Of a DNA stretch of 64,000 bases, positions 6,370 to 14,933 are shown piece after piece. The notes beneath the pieces were generated by a model. That model was not told the origin of the DNA, searched no databases, and was given only the letters and a program-made list of their open reading frames with translations. Each line of letters begins with the position of its first letter. Within the stretch, counting starts at the first letter, position 1. Location: the NCBI GenBank assembly GCA_963748825.1, contig CAVVKN010000007.1, positions 1 to 64,000 of the forward strand, given 5' to 3'. The translations under genes were made by a program, and so were the position numbers. Source of the DNA: Methanotrichaceae archaeon (lineage in GTDB: Archaea > Halobacteriota > Methanosarcinia > Methanotrichales > Methanotrichaceae).

Positions 6370-7209
6370 TTAATCCGGTCTTCTTACTCCGTTGTAGGCT
6401 CTGCGCTTAAAGGAGACTTCAACATCTACATCTAAAATTTGTCTTTGAAGCTTCGGCAATACATCTTGGAGGTATGTCCCGCACACATCTATGCTCTGGC
6501 CTCTCCAGGCTCGATTTACCTTTATAATTAACGGATTTGAGTTATCCTTTGATCGAGAGACAAAAAATCCACCGTTCTCAGCTATTCTTGCAAATAGTTG
6601 ATATTTATAGAAACCAAGATCGATAAGCAAAATTTTCCCTTTTATCCAGGGGCCGACTCTGATGGTCTTAAGCTCATTAGTGCGTTCTTTGTATATAGAA
6701 ATGCTTTCCGGGGTGTTTCCAACTGCACTGACAAGAACCGCGATCTTAAGGCCGGCAGCTTCTCCTTTGGATCGAGCAGCCGGATAGAGTTTGGCCAGAC
6801 TTGTATGAAGCCGAACTATCGTACTATCCTGAATCAATACATCTTGGAACTTTACTAATTTTTTGTTAAGATTATGGCTTTGTTCTTTGGCAAGGTATTC
6901 AATTCCATGAATAACGCATGCTTTGAGAAAAGCAACGAGTTCTGGAGTAAAGCGGTAATACCAGCTACTATCGCTTAATTTCTCGTGAGCTTCTTTCTCA
7001 TAACTTCGTTTCAGACTGGCTAGTGTTCTCTGAAGACGGACCCCAAAACTCAAAGTCAAAACCCAAAACATGACGACTGCATCTATCTTGCGTTCACGTT
7101 TTATTAAACCAGTATCTATTGCGGTCTTCCTTAAAAATTCAGGCGAAAACATCGTGCATAGATCTTTCTCTATGAAGCTCTGCTCTGCTTTCGAGCAATC
7201 TGTTGCCAT
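6370..7209 (-). pseudogene. IS4-family (ISH8-like) transposase, C-terminally truncated
   Basis: RERKID, IQDSTIVRL and LLIDLGFY DDE motifs; only 279 aa, ends before the third catalytic residue/YREK region. Confidence 0.85.
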
Positions 7210-7594: not shown

Positions 7595-7654
7595 GCGCTC
7601 GCAGGCCCGGCCCGAGCGGCCACGCACCCGCCTGCCCAGCGCGCGCGGGAGCCC
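7595..7654 (+). repeat. GC-rich dispersed hairpin motif, copy 2
   Basis: gcgctcgcaggcccggcccgagcggccacgcacccgcctgcccagcgcgcgcgggagccc. Confidence 0.85.
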
Positions 7655-8356: not shown

Positions 8357-8572
8357 TCATTCTTGCGATTGCTTAGTTTGTGCTTCAGCCTTTACATCGG
8401 CTTTCGCCTTATCCAAATCAGCTTTTGTATGGGCCATCTTCTTCTCTACTTCAGCTTTCGCCTTCTCAACTTCAGCCTTTACATCGGCAAATCCTTTCTC
8501 TGCATCAGCCTTTGCATAAGCCAGCTTCTTCTCTATCTCAGTCTTTGCCTTCTCTACCGTATAATTTGTCAT
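8357..8572 (-). CDS. Small Lys/Ala/Glu-rich repetitive helical protein (LEA/stress-protein-like)
   Basis: 71 aa with repeated AKA(E/D)VEK units; GGAGG RBS upstream. Confidence 0.7.
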   Translation of the reverse strand: MTNYTVEKAKTEIEKKLAYAKADAEKGFADVKAEVEKAKAEVEKKMAHTKADLDKAKADVKAEAQTKQSQE

Positions 8573-8877
8573 TTTTTGAATCCTCCTTTTGTGCTTATGA
8601 TCTAAATACGGCTTCTCTGAATTTAAATTTTTTTAATTTAGGAATTACTATATATGTACAATACATAAACACAAATCCAGAAATGTTCAAAATTTCTTTG
8701 ACACTATCTGGACTGGTGGCCAAAATGCTAAAGGTTAACGCTGCAATAATCAAAAGGAGCGGGCATGCTCAAAGCCAGCGGTCGCCAGGTAGATCCTAAT
8801 GGTCTTGTCAGCCAGTCCCTCCCGGAGCTGGCTGTAGCGGCAATTGAGCTGTTCGGAGACGGCACCCCAGCATTCGT

Positions 8878-8938
8878 GCGAAGCGGGCCCATCCGAGCGG
8901 CCACGGCCCGGCGCCCGCCTGCCCGCACGCGGGAGGCC
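8878..8938 (+). repeat. GC-rich dispersed hairpin motif, copy 3
   Basis: gcgaagcgggcccatccgagcggccacggcccggcgcccgcctgcccgcacgcgggaggcc. Confidence 0.8.
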
Positions 8939-9112
8939 GATTGAGTGGCGTCCTGCTTGAACCCAAGCCCTGCTTTCAAACCATTATCTGTAACTGGTGA
9001 TGCGGATATAATCACGACGACGAAATCCATTAGATCTAGATGCCCATTCGTCCGGGGAGCCGAAAGCGAGCTATTGCGAAATAACTTTAAATCCGAAGCT
9101 TACAACAATTAA

Positions 9113-9364
9113 ATGGTTGATTCACTCATGGAAAAGCTGCATTTGCCAATTCTTATCGAAATCGATGAAGACGGCTTGTACATAGTTAGCTGCCCGCTTT
9201 TCAAGGGATGTCACTCCTGGGGCGAGACCATCGATGAAGCCATGGAGAACATAAGAGAGGTCATTGAGATGTGCCTGGAAGAGACAAAAATCGATAATCT
9301 CAATACCTTTGTTGGTTTCAGAGACCTGGAAGTAGTTCAAGATACAAAAGCTTCCTGCGATTGA
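9113..9364 (+). CDS. hicB: HicB-family antitoxin
   Basis: IEIDEDGLYIVSCPLFKGCHSWGETIDEAMENIREVIEMCLE HicB signature. Confidence 0.9.
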   Translation: MVDSLMEKLHLPILIEIDEDGLYIVSCPLFKGCHSWGETIDEAMENIREVIEMCLEETKIDNLNTFVGFRDLEVVQDTKASCD

Positions 9365-9587
9365 TGCCCAAGAACTCTTGAGATTTCTGAAATCCACTGG
9401 ATTTTCTGTTATTAGGATGAAGGGATCTCATGTACGGCTAAGATCTGTTGATGGTCGGGTGACTACTGTTCCAATTCATGGAAATAAGGAAGTGCCCAAA
9501 GGACTCTTGCGCAAAATAATCAGAGAAGATTTGGAGATGAGTCAGGAGGATTTTTTAGAGCTGTATTCAAACTTCAAGGGAAAATAA
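9342..9587 (+). CDS. hicA: HicA-family mRNA interferase toxin
   Basis: GFSVIRMKGSH and TTVPIHGNKEVPKGLLRKII motifs; homology extends upstream of the TTG at 9378 to an ATA at 9342 (IQKLPAIDAQELLRFL). Confidence 0.88.
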   Translation: MQKLPAIDAQELLRFLKSTGFSVIRMKGSHVRLRSVDGRVTTVPIHGNKEVPKGLLRKIIREDLEMSQEDFLELYSNFKGK

Positions 9588-9618
9588 GACATTAGATTGG
9601 ATCTTACACATATTTCCG

Positions 9619-9674
9619 GCGCTCGCAGGCCCCCCGAGCGGCCACGCGCCCGCCTGCCCGCGCGCGGGAAGCCC
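9619..9674 (+). repeat. GC-rich dispersed hairpin motif, copy 4
   Basis: gcgctcgcaggccccccgagcggccacgcgcccgcctgcccgcgcgcgggaagccc. Confidence 0.85.
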
Positions 9675-9744
9675 TGTGCTGGCGTTCCTGGCCAGCAGAA
9701 GATGTTGCCTAACTTATTGTCCACCCGGAGGGGTTCATTCCGTT

Positions 9745-10464
9745 TCAGCTCTCCTCGTAAATCGGCTTTTCCGGCACCAGATAGATCGTCCAGAAGACCA
9801 GTATGGTAACGATTGCTTTAACGATGATGTTGGTCCAGATCATCTGCTGCAAGCCTTCCGCACCCACAACCCCGGCAAAAGCGATGATGGGAAAGATCAG
9901 GCTATCCACGGGAATGGAGACGGAATTGGAAGCAAACACCCGCGTCCATTGCGGCCATTTTTCCCTGCCGCCACGAGTCCAGAGTTGATAGACTTTCGTG
10001 TCAATCAGCTCTGCAATGAGCGCCGTCAGGATGGATGCCAATACAATCCTCATCTGCAGGGAAAAAAGAAATTCCCAGGCAATCTGCCCTCCGCTATTCG
10101 CCCAATCGGTCTGCGCCGGCAGCAGGACAACCAGCTGAAAATAAAGAGCCGCGAGCAGGTTGACGGCTGCCGACAGCCAGATAGTGGTGACTGCCGCCTT
10201 CTGGCCGAGCTGCTTGTGGATCAGGTCGCGCCAGGTGAAGGTTAAAGAGTAAATGAAGCCGGCGTCCATGACCAGGCCGCCGAAGTAGGTGACCTTGGTG
10301 GCGGCAATGTTGCCTGCCAGGGCGAAGAAGAGGTAAAGACCGGAGAGAATTATGGTGGCCTGAGTCCGATCAATCCCTAATTTGCCGCCCTTAATCCGGT
10401 TCTCATCCGCTCTCTTCGTCCTCTGGCCCTCACATTCGCCCTGGCCCTCTGCCTTTATCTGCAT
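9745..10464 (-). CDS. yhhQ: Queuosine-precursor transporter (YhhQ/VUT family)
   Basis: NIAATK, G..IYSLTFTWRDLIHK..G, RIVLASI.A..IAE..D and R...SN.VS..VDS.IF..IAF motifs; 1 bp downstream of tgt. Confidence 0.88.
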   Translation of the reverse strand: MQIKAEGQGECEGQRTKRADENRIKGGKLGIDRTQATIILSGLYLFFALAGNIAATKVTYFGGLVMDAGFIYSLTFTWRDLIHKQLGQKAAVTTIWLSAAVNLLAALYFQLVVLLPAQTDWANSGGQIAWEFLFSLQMRIVLASILTALIAELIDTKVYQLWTRGGREKWPQWTRVFASNSVSIPVDSLIFPIIAFAGVVGAEGLQQMIWTNIIVKAIVTILVFWTIYLVPEKPIYEES

Positions 10465-10465
10465 T

Positions 10466-11830
10466 CTAAATCTTTCTCAGCCATTTTTCTTTCAGTTCCG
10501 CAAATGTACCTGTTCGTATGCTTTCCCTGACCTCTTCCATGAAGCGGAGCATGAAATGGAGATTATGAAGCGTTGCCAGCCGGAAATAGGACAGCTCCCT
10601 GGAGACATAAAGATGGCGAAGGTATGCTCGCGTGTAGGTGCGGCAGGTCGAGCAGGAGCAGTTGGGATCAACGGGCTGCTCGTCCTCTTTGAATTTAGCT
10701 GTTTTGATATTTATGTGGAACTTGTTCTCTTGCGATCCGCCTGCCTGAGGCGAGAGCAAGAGGCTTCCCCGGCGAGCGATTCTGGTGGGCGAGACGCAGT
10801 CGAAGGTATCGATTCCTCGCGCCACGCATTCAAATATGTCGTCGATCTCGCCTATGCCTAAGAGATGGCGCGGCCGGTCGTCATCCAGTCGGGGAATGGT
10901 CCAGTCCAGGACCTGATGCATATCCTGCTTACTGTTTCCCAGCGAGCCCCCAATGGCGATGCCGTCAAAAGGCTGGGCTGAGATGGCCTCTGTGCTTTCC
11001 CGCCTCAAGTCATCAAACCATCCCCCCTGAATTATGCCATAGAGAGCTTGATTCTTATCGTGGTATCGAATAGACTCTTCCGCCCAATCATGGGTCCTTA
11101 GCATGGCTTTTCTGGTGTAATCGTAATCTGAGAGGGGTGAAGTGCATTCGTCAAATGCCATGATGATATCCGTTCCAAGATTGGACTGAATCTTCATCGA
11201 CTTTTCCGCATTCAAAAAATGCCAGGCTCCGTCGGCAAGGGACTTGAAGGAGATGCCCTCATCAGTAATCCGAGTCAAATTCTCCTTCTTCACCGCCTTC
11301 TGCCTTTCTTTTTCATTTACCCTGTATCCTATGCCACTCGAACTCCCATTCTCCCCTTCCGCGCAATTATCATCATATTTTTTCCTGTAATCTTTAAAAA
11401 TCTCCGCTTGATCGCAATCGTTGTGAAGACATTCTTCAGGCTCAGGGCATTTGCCACCTGATCCCAGCTCTTGCGGGAAGATGTTGCCGATCTTGCTGAT
11501 GTTATGCTCTCTGGCAAAGCCTAACGAGAAGGCCTGAAAGCCACCGGAATCGGAGAACAGGGGCCGTTCAAATCCCATGAACCGGTGCAGCCCACCCAGT
11601 CGCTTTATCAGCTCATCGCCCGGCTTCAAGTGAAGATGGTAGGTATTGGCAAGGGTGCACTGCACGCCTAAACTGAGCAGGTCGTCGGAGCCCAGAGCTC
11701 TCACGCTGCCCATTGTTGCCACCGGAACCAGGTAGGGCGTCTGTATATCTCCCCGCCTGGTTTTTATCAGCCCCAGCCTGGCTTTCGTTTCTTTATCCTG
11801 CTTTAAGATCTCAAAAGATAGTGCGCTCAT
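10466..11830 (-). CDS. tgt: Bacterial-type tRNA-guanine(34) transglycosylase
   Basis: ANTYHL, DSGGFQ, MAFDECT, IIQGG, AIGGSLG, RPRHLLGIG, DTFDCVSPTR and CxCxxC...HN zinc site; no archaeal C-terminal PUA domains. Confidence 0.95.
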   Translation of the reverse strand: MSALSFEILKQDKETKARLGLIKTRRGDIQTPYLVPVATMGSVRALGSDDLLSLGVQCTLANTYHLHLKPGDELIKRLGGLHRFMGFERPLFSDSGGFQAFSLGFAREHNISKIGNIFPQELGSGGKCPEPEECLHNDCDQAEIFKDYRKKYDDNCAEGENGSSSGIGYRVNEKERQKAVKKENLTRITDEGISFKSLADGAWHFLNAEKSMKIQSNLGTDIIMAFDECTSPLSDYDYTRKAMLRTHDWAEESIRYHDKNQALYGIIQGGWFDDLRRESTEAISAQPFDGIAIGGSLGNSKQDMHQVLDWTIPRLDDDRPRHLLGIGEIDDIFECVARGIDTFDCVSPTRIARRGSLLLSPQAGGSQENKFHINIKTAKFKEDEQPVDPNCSCSTCRTYTRAYLRHLYVSRELSYFRLATLHNLHFMLRFMEEVRESIRTGTFAELKEKWLRKI

Positions 11831-11983
11831 TTCCTATTACCTGAATGCAATCATTACTGCTATCGTGCCCAGGCCTCCTGCGGTTAGCAGGCGGAAAAAG
11901 CTTTTGCATGACTTGCGCATAACAAGGCATCAGAAAAAACATTGATATACTCCTCAAGGATGTAATAAGGTCGAGGTTTATCG

Positions 11984-12478
11984 ATGAGCGTGCACAGCGG
12001 CGGAATTCTCTTATTCAGGTTTAAAGACAGCAAAATGGAAGTGCTGCTTGTCCATCCTGGTGGCCCTTTCTGGTTTGGGAAGGATGTTGGTGCCTGGTCG
12101 ATACCCAAAGGGGTGTTTGAAGAGCAGGAGAGCCCGCTAGAGGCCGCAAAAAGGGAATTCAAAGAGGAAACCGGCTCTGAGGTTACAGGGCGGTTCACAA
12201 ACCTTGGCACGATAAGGCAGCCCAGCAAAAAGATTGTGCACGTGTGGGCACTTCAATCGGATTTAGATGCAACTTTAGCCACGAGCAATAAATTCACCAT
12301 GGAATGGCCGAAAAAATCAGGAATCATGAGAGAATTTCCAGAGGCCGATAAAGCCGAATGGTTTGATATTGAGAAAGCCAGGAAAAAGATCCTGAAAGGG
12401 CAAGCCGGTTTTATTGATAGACTCCTGGAAGCTGTCAATCATGAGCCAAAAAAAGAAGCTATTGCAGAGCTTTCTTAA
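11984..12478 (+). CDS. NUDIX hydrolase
   Basis: LLVHPGGPFW...WSIPKG...AAKREFKEETG Nudix box. Confidence 0.92.
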   Translation: MSVHSGGILLFRFKDSKMEVLLVHPGGPFWFGKDVGAWSIPKGVFEEQESPLEAAKREFKEETGSEVTGRFTNLGTIRQPSKKIVHVWALQSDLDATLATSNKFTMEWPKKSGIMREFPEADKAEWFDIEKARKKILKGQAGFIDRLLEAVNHEPKKEAIAELS

Positions 12479-13160
12479 CCTTTTCCACCAGCTCCGCCTG
12501 GATGGCGCTCCTGCGATCTCCACCGCAAACGATGCCCCTTACGCCGATGATGTCCGGCTGCAACCGTCTGAGAAGCTCCAGGTGGGCGAAACTGATGCTT
12601 CCGGCAATTGCCACCTCCAGACCGACGGCATGACCCAGAGCAATGAAATCCAGCAGATCCTGCTCGCTCATGAAATCAAAGGTCGACTTTCCGTCTTTGA
12701 CGGCCGTGTCCACCATGACCAGGTCTGCGCCGGCTTTGGCGGCAGCTGCGGGCAGGAGCCGGGGCGAGATGGATCCGACTCGGGCGTAGTCGGAGTAGCC
12801 TGATGCAACTACCTTCTTCCCGGCATCGAAGTCCTTGACCGCTCGCACAATGCCCACCAGCATCTCTTCCGCCTGGGAAGGAGTTTTCACTCCCAAAAGG
12901 CCCGCCTTTACGTACTCGGCGCCGGAGACAGCTGCGCCTAAAGCCGCCAGGCTCGCTGTGCCCGGTTTGAATTCCAGGTCGCCGATGGTGGCGGAAACCG
13001 GCACCTTGCCTCTGGCCAGGTCTGCCACGGCCCGGATGGCCCAGGGAAAGTTCGCGCCAAGTGACCCCTCTTTGGGGTTCTTCACGTCTAAAATGTCTGC
13101 ACCGCCGGCCAGGGCCGCTTGTGCTTCAACAATATTCATAGGGCTAACCAACAATCTCAT
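12459..13160 (-). CDS. mfnB: (5-formylfuran-3-yl)methyl phosphate synthase (methanofuran biosynthesis)
   Basis: MRLLVSP...GGADILDVKNPKEGSLGANFPW, SATIGD, DTAVKDG, DIIGVRG motifs; start trimmed to ATG at 13160. Confidence 0.92.
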   Translation of the reverse strand: MRLLVSPMNIVEAQAALAGGADILDVKNPKEGSLGANFPWAIRAVADLARGKVPVSATIGDLEFKPGTASLAALGAAVSGAEYVKAGLLGVKTPSQAEEMLVGIVRAVKDFDAGKKVVASGYSDYARVGSISPRLLPAAAAKAGADLVMVDTAVKDGKSTFDFMSEQDLLDFIALGHAVGLEVAIAGSISFAHLELLRRLQPDIIGVRGIVCGGDRRSAIQAELVEKVKKALQ

Positions 13161-13187
13161 ATTCATCCAATCCCGAAAGGAGCAGTC

Positions 13188-13877
13188 GTGCGATGCATCT
13201 TCGTCCTCGATATACTTAATGGTGCTGTTGTCCATGCCGTGCGAGGAGAGAGAAGCCGTTATGAGCCTGTAACTGGCTTTTCCCATATCGTGTCCACATC
13301 GGAGCCGCTGGGCATTCTGCAAGAGCTTCGCCCCAGGGAGGTTTACATCGCCGACCTTAACCTGCTGACAGGCCGGGGCGATAATCTGGCGGTCATAGAA
13401 AAGATATCAACCGTGGCCAGGACCATGGCCGATACGGGGATTTCGAAGGCTGGCGATCTGGATCGTCTGCCTGCATCAATCTCACCGGTACTGGGCACGG
13501 AGACGGCCTCGCTTCAGCTCATCGAAGAGGCGGCAAGAGAATGCAAGATAGTAGTAAGCGTCGATATGATGAAAAGGAAGGTGCTGGCCCGCGATCCCGA
13601 ACTGGCCGGGCAGACGCCTTTGCAGCTCTTGCAGATGTTAAATGGCCTGAAGCTGGAGGGCGTTATCCTTCTGGAGCTGGATAGAGTGGGCACATCTGTT
13701 GGACTAGATGAACAGTTTTTGGTGGAGGCAGCAGCAGCCACTAAGCATCCCCTCATACTGGGAGGCGGCGTGAAGGGGGAAGAAGACCTGATGGCTTTGG
13801 AAGAGATGGGCTTTTCGGGAGCACTGCTGGCCACAGCACTGCACAATGGCAGAATACCTGTAGCGCGAGTGCAGTGA
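13188..13877 (+). CDS. HisA/HisF-related TIM-barrel protein (C1-cofactor associated)
   Basis: VLDILNGAVVHAVRGERSRY, YIADLN, LDRVGT and GGGV...ATALHNG; GTG start after AGGAG; divergent from mfnB. Confidence 0.85.
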   Translation: MRCIFVLDILNGAVVHAVRGERSRYEPVTGFSHIVSTSEPLGILQELRPREVYIADLNLLTGRGDNLAVIEKISTVARTMADTGISKAGDLDRLPASISPVLGTETASLQLIEEAARECKIVVSVDMMKRKVLARDPELAGQTPLQLLQMLNGLKLEGVILLELDRVGTSVGLDEQFLVEAAAATKHPLILGGGVKGEEDLMALEEMGFSGALLATALHNGRIPVARVQ

Positions 13878-14195: not shown

Positions 14196-14933
14196 TTACA
14201 GCTTGCGATGGCAGAACCACCAGTCTTCGCAGACCATATCTCCACTCGTCTTCCTGGTAGCCGCGGTCTTTTCATCGCCGGGAGGCGGAATGATCACCTG
14301 ATCGCCTATCAGCTCGTTGTTAGGCCAGTTAGCGGGAGCTGCTACCTTGTTCTTGTCCACAACCTGCAAAGCCTTTACTGCCCTCACGATCTCATCCATA
14401 TTTCTGCCCACTTCCTGGGGATAGAAGAGGATCAGCCGGACGGTTGCCTCCGGGTCAATGACGAACACCGCCCGAACGGTATTGCTGGCTTTTCCAGGAT
14501 GGATCATGCCCATTCTCTGTGCAATCTTTCCCTGATCGTCGGCAATGATGGGGAACTTGATCTCTACATTCAGATTTTCCTTGATCCACTGTGTCCACTT
14601 CATGTGGGAGAAGACCTGATCAATGGAAAGGCCGATGAGCTCGCAATTGAGCTTCTCAAACTCCCCTCGCCTCTTTTCAAAGGCCACAAATTCCGTTGTG
14701 CAGACAGGCGTAAAGTCTGCAGGATGGCTGAAGAACACAAACCATTTTCCTGCGAAGGCATCGGGCAATGTCATCATGCCATGAGTGGTCTTCACCTCCA
14801 TCCTGGGCATCTTGTCCCCAATAAGCGGAAAGCCACCCTCGCATCCACACATATTATGCATCATTCCCATATGCTTCATTCCCATTCCGCCCATTTCCAT
14901 ATGTTTTCCCATCGGCATTTCCATCTGACACAT
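14196..14933 (-). CDS. Peroxiredoxin (Prx6/archaeal type) with Met/His/Cys-rich N-terminal extension
   Basis: [36 protein letters not shown] and C.DWWFC motifs. Confidence 0.95.

Follow-up and report, generated by a model that had tools for sequence, protein, structure and literature searches.

The 64,000-nucleotide window analysed here, positions 1 to 64,000 of contig CAVVKN010000007.1 from a Methanotrichaceae archaeon (assembly GCA_963748825.1), carries on its reverse strand two adjoining genes, one encoding a bacterial-type tRNA-guanine(34) transglycosylase (Tgt) and the other a transporter of the YhhQ or queuosine precursor transporter (QPTR) family, which together probably form a module for the salvage of a 7-deazaguanine base. 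The features of the pair are as follows.

10466..11830 (-): tgt, bacterial-type tRNA-guanine(34) transglycosylase of the short-loop, insertion-bearing subfamily, 454 residues (open reading frame (ORF) and profile matches)
9745..10464 (-): yhhQ/QPTR (PF02592), Tgt-linked 'type B' paralog, 239 residues counted from the first ATG (ORF and profile matches)
10462..10468 (-): tgt/yhhQ junction TAG-A-ATG, with the tgt stop at 10466-10468, one spacer base at 10465 and the yhhQ ATG at 10462-10464 (sequence; spanned by RNA-library contigs)
11549..11551 (-): Asp94, equivalent to Asp102 of Zymomonas mobilis Tgt, within DSGGFQ, an invariant column (structure-chain and family alignments)
11282..11518 (-): insertion after DSGGFQ, about residues 105-183, with the conserved start GFAREHNISKIGNIFP (alignments, AlphaFold2 model)
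11141..11152 (-): D227-E228-C229-T230, with the counterparts of D156 and C158 in Z. mobilis Tgt; Cys kept (alignments)
10934..10951 (-): pocket loop G294-G295-S296-L297-G298-N299, one residue short of the canonical GGL(A/S)(V/I)GE and with Asn in place of Glu235 (alignments)
10799..10801 (-): Asp344, equivalent to the catalytic nucleophile Asp280, within TFDCV (alignments)
10565..10660 (-): zinc site C391-x-C393-x-x-C396 ... H422 (alignments)

In a Pfam scan of the protein, PF01702 was the sole domain of the Tgt (E 4.4e-128), and neither a PUA domain nor any other, including the C-terminal domains of the archaeal enzyme (arcTGT), was found; the score on the NCBIfam profile TIGR00430 is 463.3 bits (cut-off 306.75), and those on the arcTGT profile TIGR00432 (123.4 bits versus 350) and the DpdA profile NF041059 (30.6 bits versus 200) stay below the cut-off. 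The product of the second gene matches PF02592 Vut_1 (E 2.9e-33, 115.8 bits, cut-off 27.2) and the queuosine precursor transporter profile TIGR00697 (80.4 bits, cut-off 50.95); a hydrophilic stretch of ~35 residues at its N-terminus suggests that translation may begin at a later codon. An earlier note on this DNA, made from the letters alone, had described a bacterial-type Tgt without PUA domains, with a DECT motif and an intact zinc site, lying 1 bp from a YhhQ/VUT transporter and ~0.6 kb from mfnB in a methanogen, and this description holds, the distance to mfnB being 629 bases from the Tgt start.

All four RNA-library runs searched (4 studies) yielded contigs that match stretches of tgt and of yhhQ at 90-99% likeness, and the junction at 10465 is bridged by two such contigs (10225-10662 and 10364-10572). 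The contigs are compatible with a co-transcription of tgt and yhhQ, of which they are no proof, and the parts of the genes that they leave uncovered carry no evidential weight.

Catalytic core, insertion and pocket loop of the Tgt

Against the Tgt of Thermotoga maritima and Z. mobilis, with which it shares 34-37% identity, the protein is matched over two separate segments (residues 6-104 and 184-450, E about 1e-88), and it is because of this division that some 80 residues are placed as an insertion after DSGGFQ; a second insertion, of 9 residues, lies near residue 361. The AlphaFold2 model, computed from a 45-sequence input, has a predicted local distance difference test (pLDDT) score of 85.3, and its top Foldseek matches are 2ash and 1ozm, with target-normalised template modelling (TM) scores of 0.93-0.94 and a root-mean-square deviation of 1.8-2.2 Å; on the T. 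maritima and Z. mobilis enzymes overall, the target-normalised TM score is 0.92-0.94. Judged by this model, tgt is not a chance ORF. The large insertion is 34 residues long in most of the Methanotrichaceae and 64-88 in the genus of the window, and its low-complexity middle (residues 115-176, nucleotides 11303-11488) is length-variable and modelled with pLDDT below 50. One RNA-library contig is without 78 nt (11390-11469), in frame, inside this variable stretch.

The pocket loop deserves a separate account, since the earlier note had located GGSLG correctly at 10937-10951 (residues 294-298) and had read from it a Gly at the position of Val233, a reading that the alignments do not bear out. The loop of the window enzyme, GGSLGNSKQDM, faces GGLAVGEGQDEM in Z. 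mobilis and is one residue shorter, and the gap falls directly after GG in HMMER alignments to the T. maritima chain and to a Z. mobilis chain with a wild-type loop (the W95F mutant), in MAFFT alignments of four different sequence sets, and in an hhalign comparison of a 45-sequence short-loop profile with a 36-sequence canonical profile. Placed there, the gap sets Ser296 at 232, Leu297 at 233, Gly298 at 234 and Asn299 at Glu235; HMMER brings Gly298 under position 233 only when the chains aligned are V233G mutants. The alignments thus give no support to a Gly at the Val233 position, although a structure would be needed to exclude it. The same alignments clearly point to a remodelled preQ1-type loop (preQ1, 7-aminomethyl-7-deazaguanine), one residue having been lost together with the Glu that is invariant in canonical enzymes, so that GG-SLGN departs from the GGL(A/S)(V/I)GE loop with its Glu235. 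Loops shorter still, such as GGSF-KEDM and GGAL-EKENL, occur in relatives from candidate-phyla-radiation bacteria and Actinomycetota.

Gene complement of the host and distribution of the pair

Close homologs, at 65-98% identity, bear the names Methanothrix and Methanotrichaceae, in keeping with the methanogen context noted earlier, and on these matches the genome is assigned to Methanothrix. The window comes from contig 7 of an assembly of 2.88 Mb (completeness 94.9%, contamination 1.7%), and the guanine-plus-cytosine (GC) fraction at the pair is 0.52, within a range of 0.44-0.61 across the window. A true arcTGT, whose separate presence the earlier note had left to be confirmed along with an absence of queA and queG, is encoded elsewhere in the genome (C10:37578-38858, 598 bits on TIGR00432), with an ArcS-like gene 2.3 kb downstream; since QueC and QueD are encoded as well, archaeosine synthesis would be separate from the bacterial-type Tgt. 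QueA, QueH and QueF were not found by profile searches of this 94.9% complete genome, and for QueG the search returned only sub-cut-off matches (68.6 and 43.6 bits versus 200), so that the expected absence stands for queA and, for queG, at the level of the cut-off. As QueF is absent and QueC and QueD are present, preQ0 (7-cyano-7-deazaguanine) would be the only 7-deazaguanine made by the cell, with neither synthesis of preQ1 nor completion of Q on the tRNA to be expected.

The genome therefore encodes tgt without queA, queH, queF or an above-cut-off queG, and a cognate QPTR gene begins one base downstream of tgt, two traits by which queuine-salvaging bacterial Tgts (bTGT) are recognised. The four tRNAs with GUN anticodons (Asp, Asn, His and Tyr) are all encoded, each with U33-G34-U35. 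No member of the inosine-uridine nucleoside hydrolase family PF01156, which we take to be the family of QueK, was found in the genome; for Qng1 (PF10343) the genome gave no match, a negative made uninformative by control genomes that were equally silent. A preQ1 riboswitch was not found by an Rfam scan of positions 8500-13500 at E<=1, which returned a chance match to an internal ribosome entry site (14.9 bits) alone.

The pair is a conserved trait of the family. At E<=1e-60, a threshold at which TIGR00430 picks 9 bacterial control genomes and none of 4 archaeal controls, 54 of the 58 other members of the genus and 75 of the 104 other family genomes in a class-wide sample have the Tgt, single-contig genomes included; above the profile cut-off, it is present in 37 of 61 sampled Methanotrichaceae genomes. 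Exact look-up places the pair in the cultured Methanothrix soehngenii GP6 and M. thermoacetophila, both of which already have the first gene annotated as queuine tRNA-ribosyltransferase or Tgt. A PF02592 gene lies directly downstream and on the same strand in 70 of the 76 Tgt-bearing Methanotrichaceae genomes, and in 2 of the 6 exceptions tgt stands at a contig end.

The transporter linked to Tgt is a paralog of its own. A type B YhhQ (95-117 bits on PF02592) is encoded by 70 genomes, and not one of the 29 without Tgt is among them; a type A YhhQ (145-189 bits) is encoded by 37, of which 19 lack Tgt, and 13 genomes encode both. In the YhhQ tree, the type B sequences group together at 100% support behind a branch 2.8 changes per site long, and the copies from ANME-1-like genomes are nested in this group among those of the Methanotrichaceae; a second clade unites the YhhQs adjacent to the short-loop Tgts of Archaeoglobaceae and Thermoplasmatales and the YhhQs of three type-B-less Methanotrichaceae, and the stand-alone paralogs fall in other clades. 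Four Methanotrichaceae genomes (G028, G018, G059 and G019) are without type B and have instead a YhhQ of this second, Archaeoglobaceae/Thermoplasmatales-Tgt-linked clade, as placed in the tree for three of them and as judged from score and position for G018; the replacement adjoins tgt in two of the four and lies elsewhere in the other two, and the loss of type B looks like displacement by a paralog.

Two kinds of Tgt can be distinguished in the class. QueA was not found in the 104 other Methanotrichaceae genomes (0/104), and it occurs in four other Methanosarcinia families (31/32, 10/12, 1/2 and 1/1 genomes), mostly adjoining tgt; the Tgts linked to it have the canonical GGLSIGE loop and no insertion, and all 11 compared Methanotrichaceae Tgts read AIGG-SLG(N/Q)(S/C)K and carry the insertion. 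In a FastTree phylogeny with local supports only, from which the loop and insertion columns had been removed, the Methanotrichaceae Tgts form a clade (support 99) inside a larger one (support 99, 61 rows) that holds 44 of the 46 short-loop sequences, the window Tgt included, and the QueA-linked archaeal Tgts lie in a separate canonical clade. The phylogeny of both genes, which had been put forward earlier as a check, thus places the window copies in a short-loop Tgt clade and a type B YhhQ clade.

Beyond the class, one genome per species was scanned, and the counts that follow refer to 80 named loci, kept as the best of 600 matching stretches. The loop is short in 37 and full-length in 43 of these. 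The short-loop archaea among them include Thermoplasmatales SG8-52-3 and a Nanoarchaeota metagenome-assembled genome (MAG), and the short-loop bacteria include Bipolaricaulota, many candidate-phyla-radiation lineages, Paracaedibacteraceae, a MAG labelled Rickettsia typhi, Micavibrio, Bdellovibrionales and, among the Actinomycetota, Mycobacterium, Arthrobacter, Rothia, Bifidobacterium, Varibaculum and freshwater acI. A queA gene is found within the locus in none of the 37 short-loop cases and in 30 of the 43 full-length ones, and a yhhQ gene in 4/37 versus 0/43; a genome-wide search for QueA in five further short-loop carriers was negative in all five. By this gene content, the short-loop clade goes with tgt-only genomes in bacteria and archaea alike.

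In a sample of the phylum, 71 of 401 genomes are above the TIGR00430 cut-off. The Tgts of Archaeoglobus fulgidus, A. sulfaticallidus and Geoglobus ahangari have the loop GG-SLGKSK; among the Archaeoglobaceae, 41 of 70 sampled genomes carry a short-loop Tgt, and QueA was absent in the two complete genomes searched. Three ANME-1-like MAGs labelled 'Methanospirareceae' (L124, L125 and L128) have the loop GG-SLGNSK and a type B YhhQ directly downstream, and the nesting of these YhhQs within Methanotrichaceae diversity suggests a transfer of the whole module between both lineages; their Tgts score 643-667 bits to the window Tgt, the module being near-identical. One further family of the sample has a canonical loop with queA adjacent, and an Aenigmatarchaeota protein is likewise of the short-loop type.

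Probable salvage into position 34 and its alternatives

The archaeal host with its separate arcTGT, the gaps in the Que pathway, the GUN tRNAs and the conserved pairing make salvage into position 34 the best reading of the locus, and the tgt-only gene set, the intact G34-type Tgt, the private transporter paralog and the clade membership fit a two-gene module in which the YhhQ/QPTR paralog would import a 7-deazaguanine base which the cell is unable to synthesise, and a Tgt of the homodimeric bacterial type would swap this base for G34 in tRNA-Asp, -Asn, -His and -Tyr. The imported base would most likely be queuine released by neighbouring bacteria, in which case Q34 would be made in one step and QueA and QueG/QueH would not be needed. 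Both the transported base and the tRNA position are what we infer from these data: import of a 7-deazaguanine base by the module, followed by insertion at position 34, is held with considerable confidence, and the choice of queuine as that base is an evenly balanced one. Of the earlier proposal of queuine import and Q34, the salvage into position 34 thus persists as the preferred interpretation, the argument from a Gly at Val233 falls away, and, in view of the annotations and literature given below, the proposal was overstated. In a wider and more tentative form, held at somewhat under even confidence, the short-loop, insertion-bearing Tgts would make up a specificity class of their own, which has given up preQ1 and which, with lineage-specific YhhQ paralogs, gives Methanothrix, Archaeoglobaceae, ANME-1-like archaea, Thermoplasmatales and DPANN a genuine Q34 from bacterial queuine.

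Several points weigh against the import of queuine and its insertion at position 34. The cell itself makes preQ0, a base that bacterial Tgt accepts, and the RNA data are assembled contigs, not single transcripts, from libraries in which some DNA may occur. The pocket itself offers nothing that points to queuine, with Leu at 233 and Cys158 kept instead of Val; in the relevant passages of PMC11570991, the pattern of queuine-salvaging Tgts is GG[LS][AS]G, i.e., with Gly at 233, to which GGSLG conforms, read without a gap, in four of five places, with Leu at the fourth. According to the same source in part, the tgt-only Bartonella henselae salvages preQ1 (PMC11570991), and the YhhQ of Escherichia coli is described in passages of PMC11130926 and PMC11570991 as carrying preQ0 and preQ1, not queuine. 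A literature search found no report of queuosine (Q) or another 7-deazaguanine at position 34 of an archaeal tRNA.

The best-placed alternative, itself unlikely, is that the Tgt inserts preQ0 at position 34, taken from the pool of the archaeosine precursor or imported by YhhQ, to yield a preQ0-34 tRNA or a further archaeal derivative. The inferred status of preQ0 as the sole 7-deazaguanine made in the cell speaks for it, and so might a loop devoid of a Glu235 equivalent, which might suit the nitrile: in Z. mobilis, Glu235 supports the Leu231/Ala232 peptide flip for binding of the preQ1 aminomethyl group, and a nitrile would not need this flip. Zallot et al. 2017, in the part of that paper concerned with COG1738 homologs in Archaea, did propose preQ0 salvage for these proteins (PMC5372724). 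Nevertheless, a base made within the cell would need no extra transporter paralog strictly linked to Tgt, the other YhhQ paralogs of the family, found also without Tgt, fit an import of preQ0 for archaeosine, and the same Tgt clade occurs in candidate-phyla-radiation bacteria, Actinomycetota and intracellular bacteria.

A salvage of preQ1, imported by YhhQ, inserted by Tgt and left as the final wobble base without QueA and QueG/QueH, as proposed for Bartonella, is rather improbable as well. The B. henselae case and the carriage of preQ1 by QPTRs of the E. coli type, both from the passages of PMC11570991 mentioned above, would agree with it, and so would the bulky Leu297 that aligns with Val233; but the Bartonella loop is the canonical GGLAVGE, from which the window enzyme differs by the deletion of Leu231 and the replacement of Glu235, and the QueA-bearing families of the same class have their canonical GGLSIGE Tgts in a separate clade. 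It is more doubtful still that the enzyme acts on DNA or on another tRNA position, or inserts an unknown base. The uncharacterised ~80-residue insertion beside the Asp94 strand and the remodelled loop leave some room for this, and against it stand the sub-cut-off DpdA and arcTGT scores given above, the Arg and Thr of the PTRxAR segment, which are invariant or nearly so in the family alignment, and the surroundings of the pair, in which no dpd-like neighbours were seen. Finally, an origin of the pair in a chimeric contig, bacterial contamination (both raised in the earlier note) or a decaying relic is hinted at by an insertion-sequence transposase, a HicAB pair and repeats within 4 kb and by split frames in a few relatives (tgt in G033 and G055, yhhQ in G192), and can be dismissed on the recurrence of the gene across the genus and family, single-contig genomes included, the conserved pairing, the copies in M. 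soehngenii GP6 and M. thermoacetophila, the unremarkable GC content and the intact catalytic residues; chimerism and contamination were rejected outright.

The surroundings of the pair contain the elements just mentioned and several other genes. Downstream of yhhQ, a GC-rich repeat of about 35-50 nt has three intergenic copies (7603-7651, 8893-8938 and 9634-9673), the last of them just beyond yhhQ, and since the contigs of relatives part from the window exactly at 9635 and 9666, it may be a small inserted element. A HicB-like antitoxin and a HicA toxin are encoded on the opposite strand (9113-9587), 160 bases downstream of yhhQ, and an ORF for a DDE transposase (PF01609) lies at 6370-7209, about 2.5 kb from the pair; the ORF at 8357-8572 (-) encodes 71 residues of Lys/Ala/Glu-rich repeats (KADxxKAKAEVEK) derived from 33/54-nt direct repeats. 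On the other side stands the following gene.

12459-13322 (-): MfnB (PF04476; NF002575 372 bits) (profile matches)

The longest ORF of MfnB overlaps a HisA/F-related ORF (13119-13877, +) by about 200 nt, and since the Pfam match begins at residue 57, the real start is probably near 13160. A 1-Cys peroxiredoxin (AhpC-TSA and 1-cysPrx_C, 14196-14933, -) has an unusual N-terminal extension of about 35 residues rich in Met, His and Gly. Synteny across the family is limited to the tgt-yhhQ pair, the NUDIX, MfnB and HisA/F-related neighbours recurring in one of ten family loci, and on that count the NUDIX gene (11984-12478) was rejected as a part of the system.

Meaning of the pair and relation to known systems

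Methanothrix, which forms close consortia with bacteria, ranks with the most abundant of the acetoclastic methanogens, and a Tgt and QPTR salvage pair is now placed in this ecologically important family. The conserved association of an importer with a transglycosylase predicts a cross-domain dependency on a micronutrient that would tune the decoding of NAU and NAC codons; if the wider reading given above is true, queuosine would occur in all three domains, and these methanogens would rely on their syntrophic bacteria for a micronutrient of translation. As M. soehngenii GP6, M. thermoacetophila and A. fulgidus carry these Tgt genes, the dependency is directly testable in culture, and as the subfamily is common to candidate-phyla-radiation, Actinomycetota and intracellular bacteria, its substrate matters beyond this genome. 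The analysis also delimits an uncharacterised Tgt subfamily.

The finding is of moderate novelty. An annotation as Tgt already exists for the gene in cultured Methanothrix and A. fulgidus, and bacterial queuosine genes are known from Methanosarcinales: Castelle et al. 2021 report that 34 archaeal genomes, including 'some Euryarchaeota (Methanosarcinales)', have the bacterial queuosine pathway (QueA, QueH and Tgt) in complete or partial form (PMC8204110). Passages of the same paper and of PMC5372724 assign queuosine to Bacteria and Eukarya only and treat archaeosine as exclusive to Archaea. A literature search found no paper linking queuosine to Methanothrix, Methanosaeta, methanogen tRNA or the Tgt of Archaeoglobus.

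The closest known system is that of Chlamydia trachomatis, in which queuine is salvaged directly by bTGT and a QPTR that carries queuine, not preQ0 or preQ1 (Yuan et al. 2019, as cited in passages of PMC11130926 and PMC11570991); in passages of the same two papers, direct queuine salvage is predicted for tgt-only genomes. Like C. trachomatis, the Methanotrichaceae archaeon is tgt-only for the Q-specific steps, combines a Tgt with a PF02592 transporter and is predicted to form Q34 in one step; unlike it, it is an archaeal host with an archaeosine pathway, has GGSLGN in place of GG[LS][AS]G and an 80-residue insertion, and arranges the two genes as a putative operon. With the canonical bacterial Tgts of Z. 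mobilis and T. maritima (PDB 1pud and 2ash), the enzyme shares the fold, the catalytic Asp residues and the zinc site, and it differs from them in a loop one residue shorter, the missing Glu235, two insertions and the lack of a QueA/QueG partner. The QueA-linked Tgts of the other Methanosarcinia families are likewise bacterial-type, but with GGLSIGE, no insertion, queA adjacent and a separate clade, and they fit a completion of Q on the tRNA, not base salvage. The Tgts of Archaeoglobaceae and of the ANME-1-like archaea belong to the same subfamily, with GG-SLG(K/N)SK and an insertion of 34-41 residues; the Archaeoglobaceae differ in that their yhhQ is of another clade and is near tgt in three of six loci (five of Archaeoglobaceae and one f35 locus). 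The YhhQ of E. coli, an importer of preQ0 and preQ1, shares PF02592 with the transporter of the pair, and its identity to any of the archaeal and actinobacterial YhhQs compared is <=26%.

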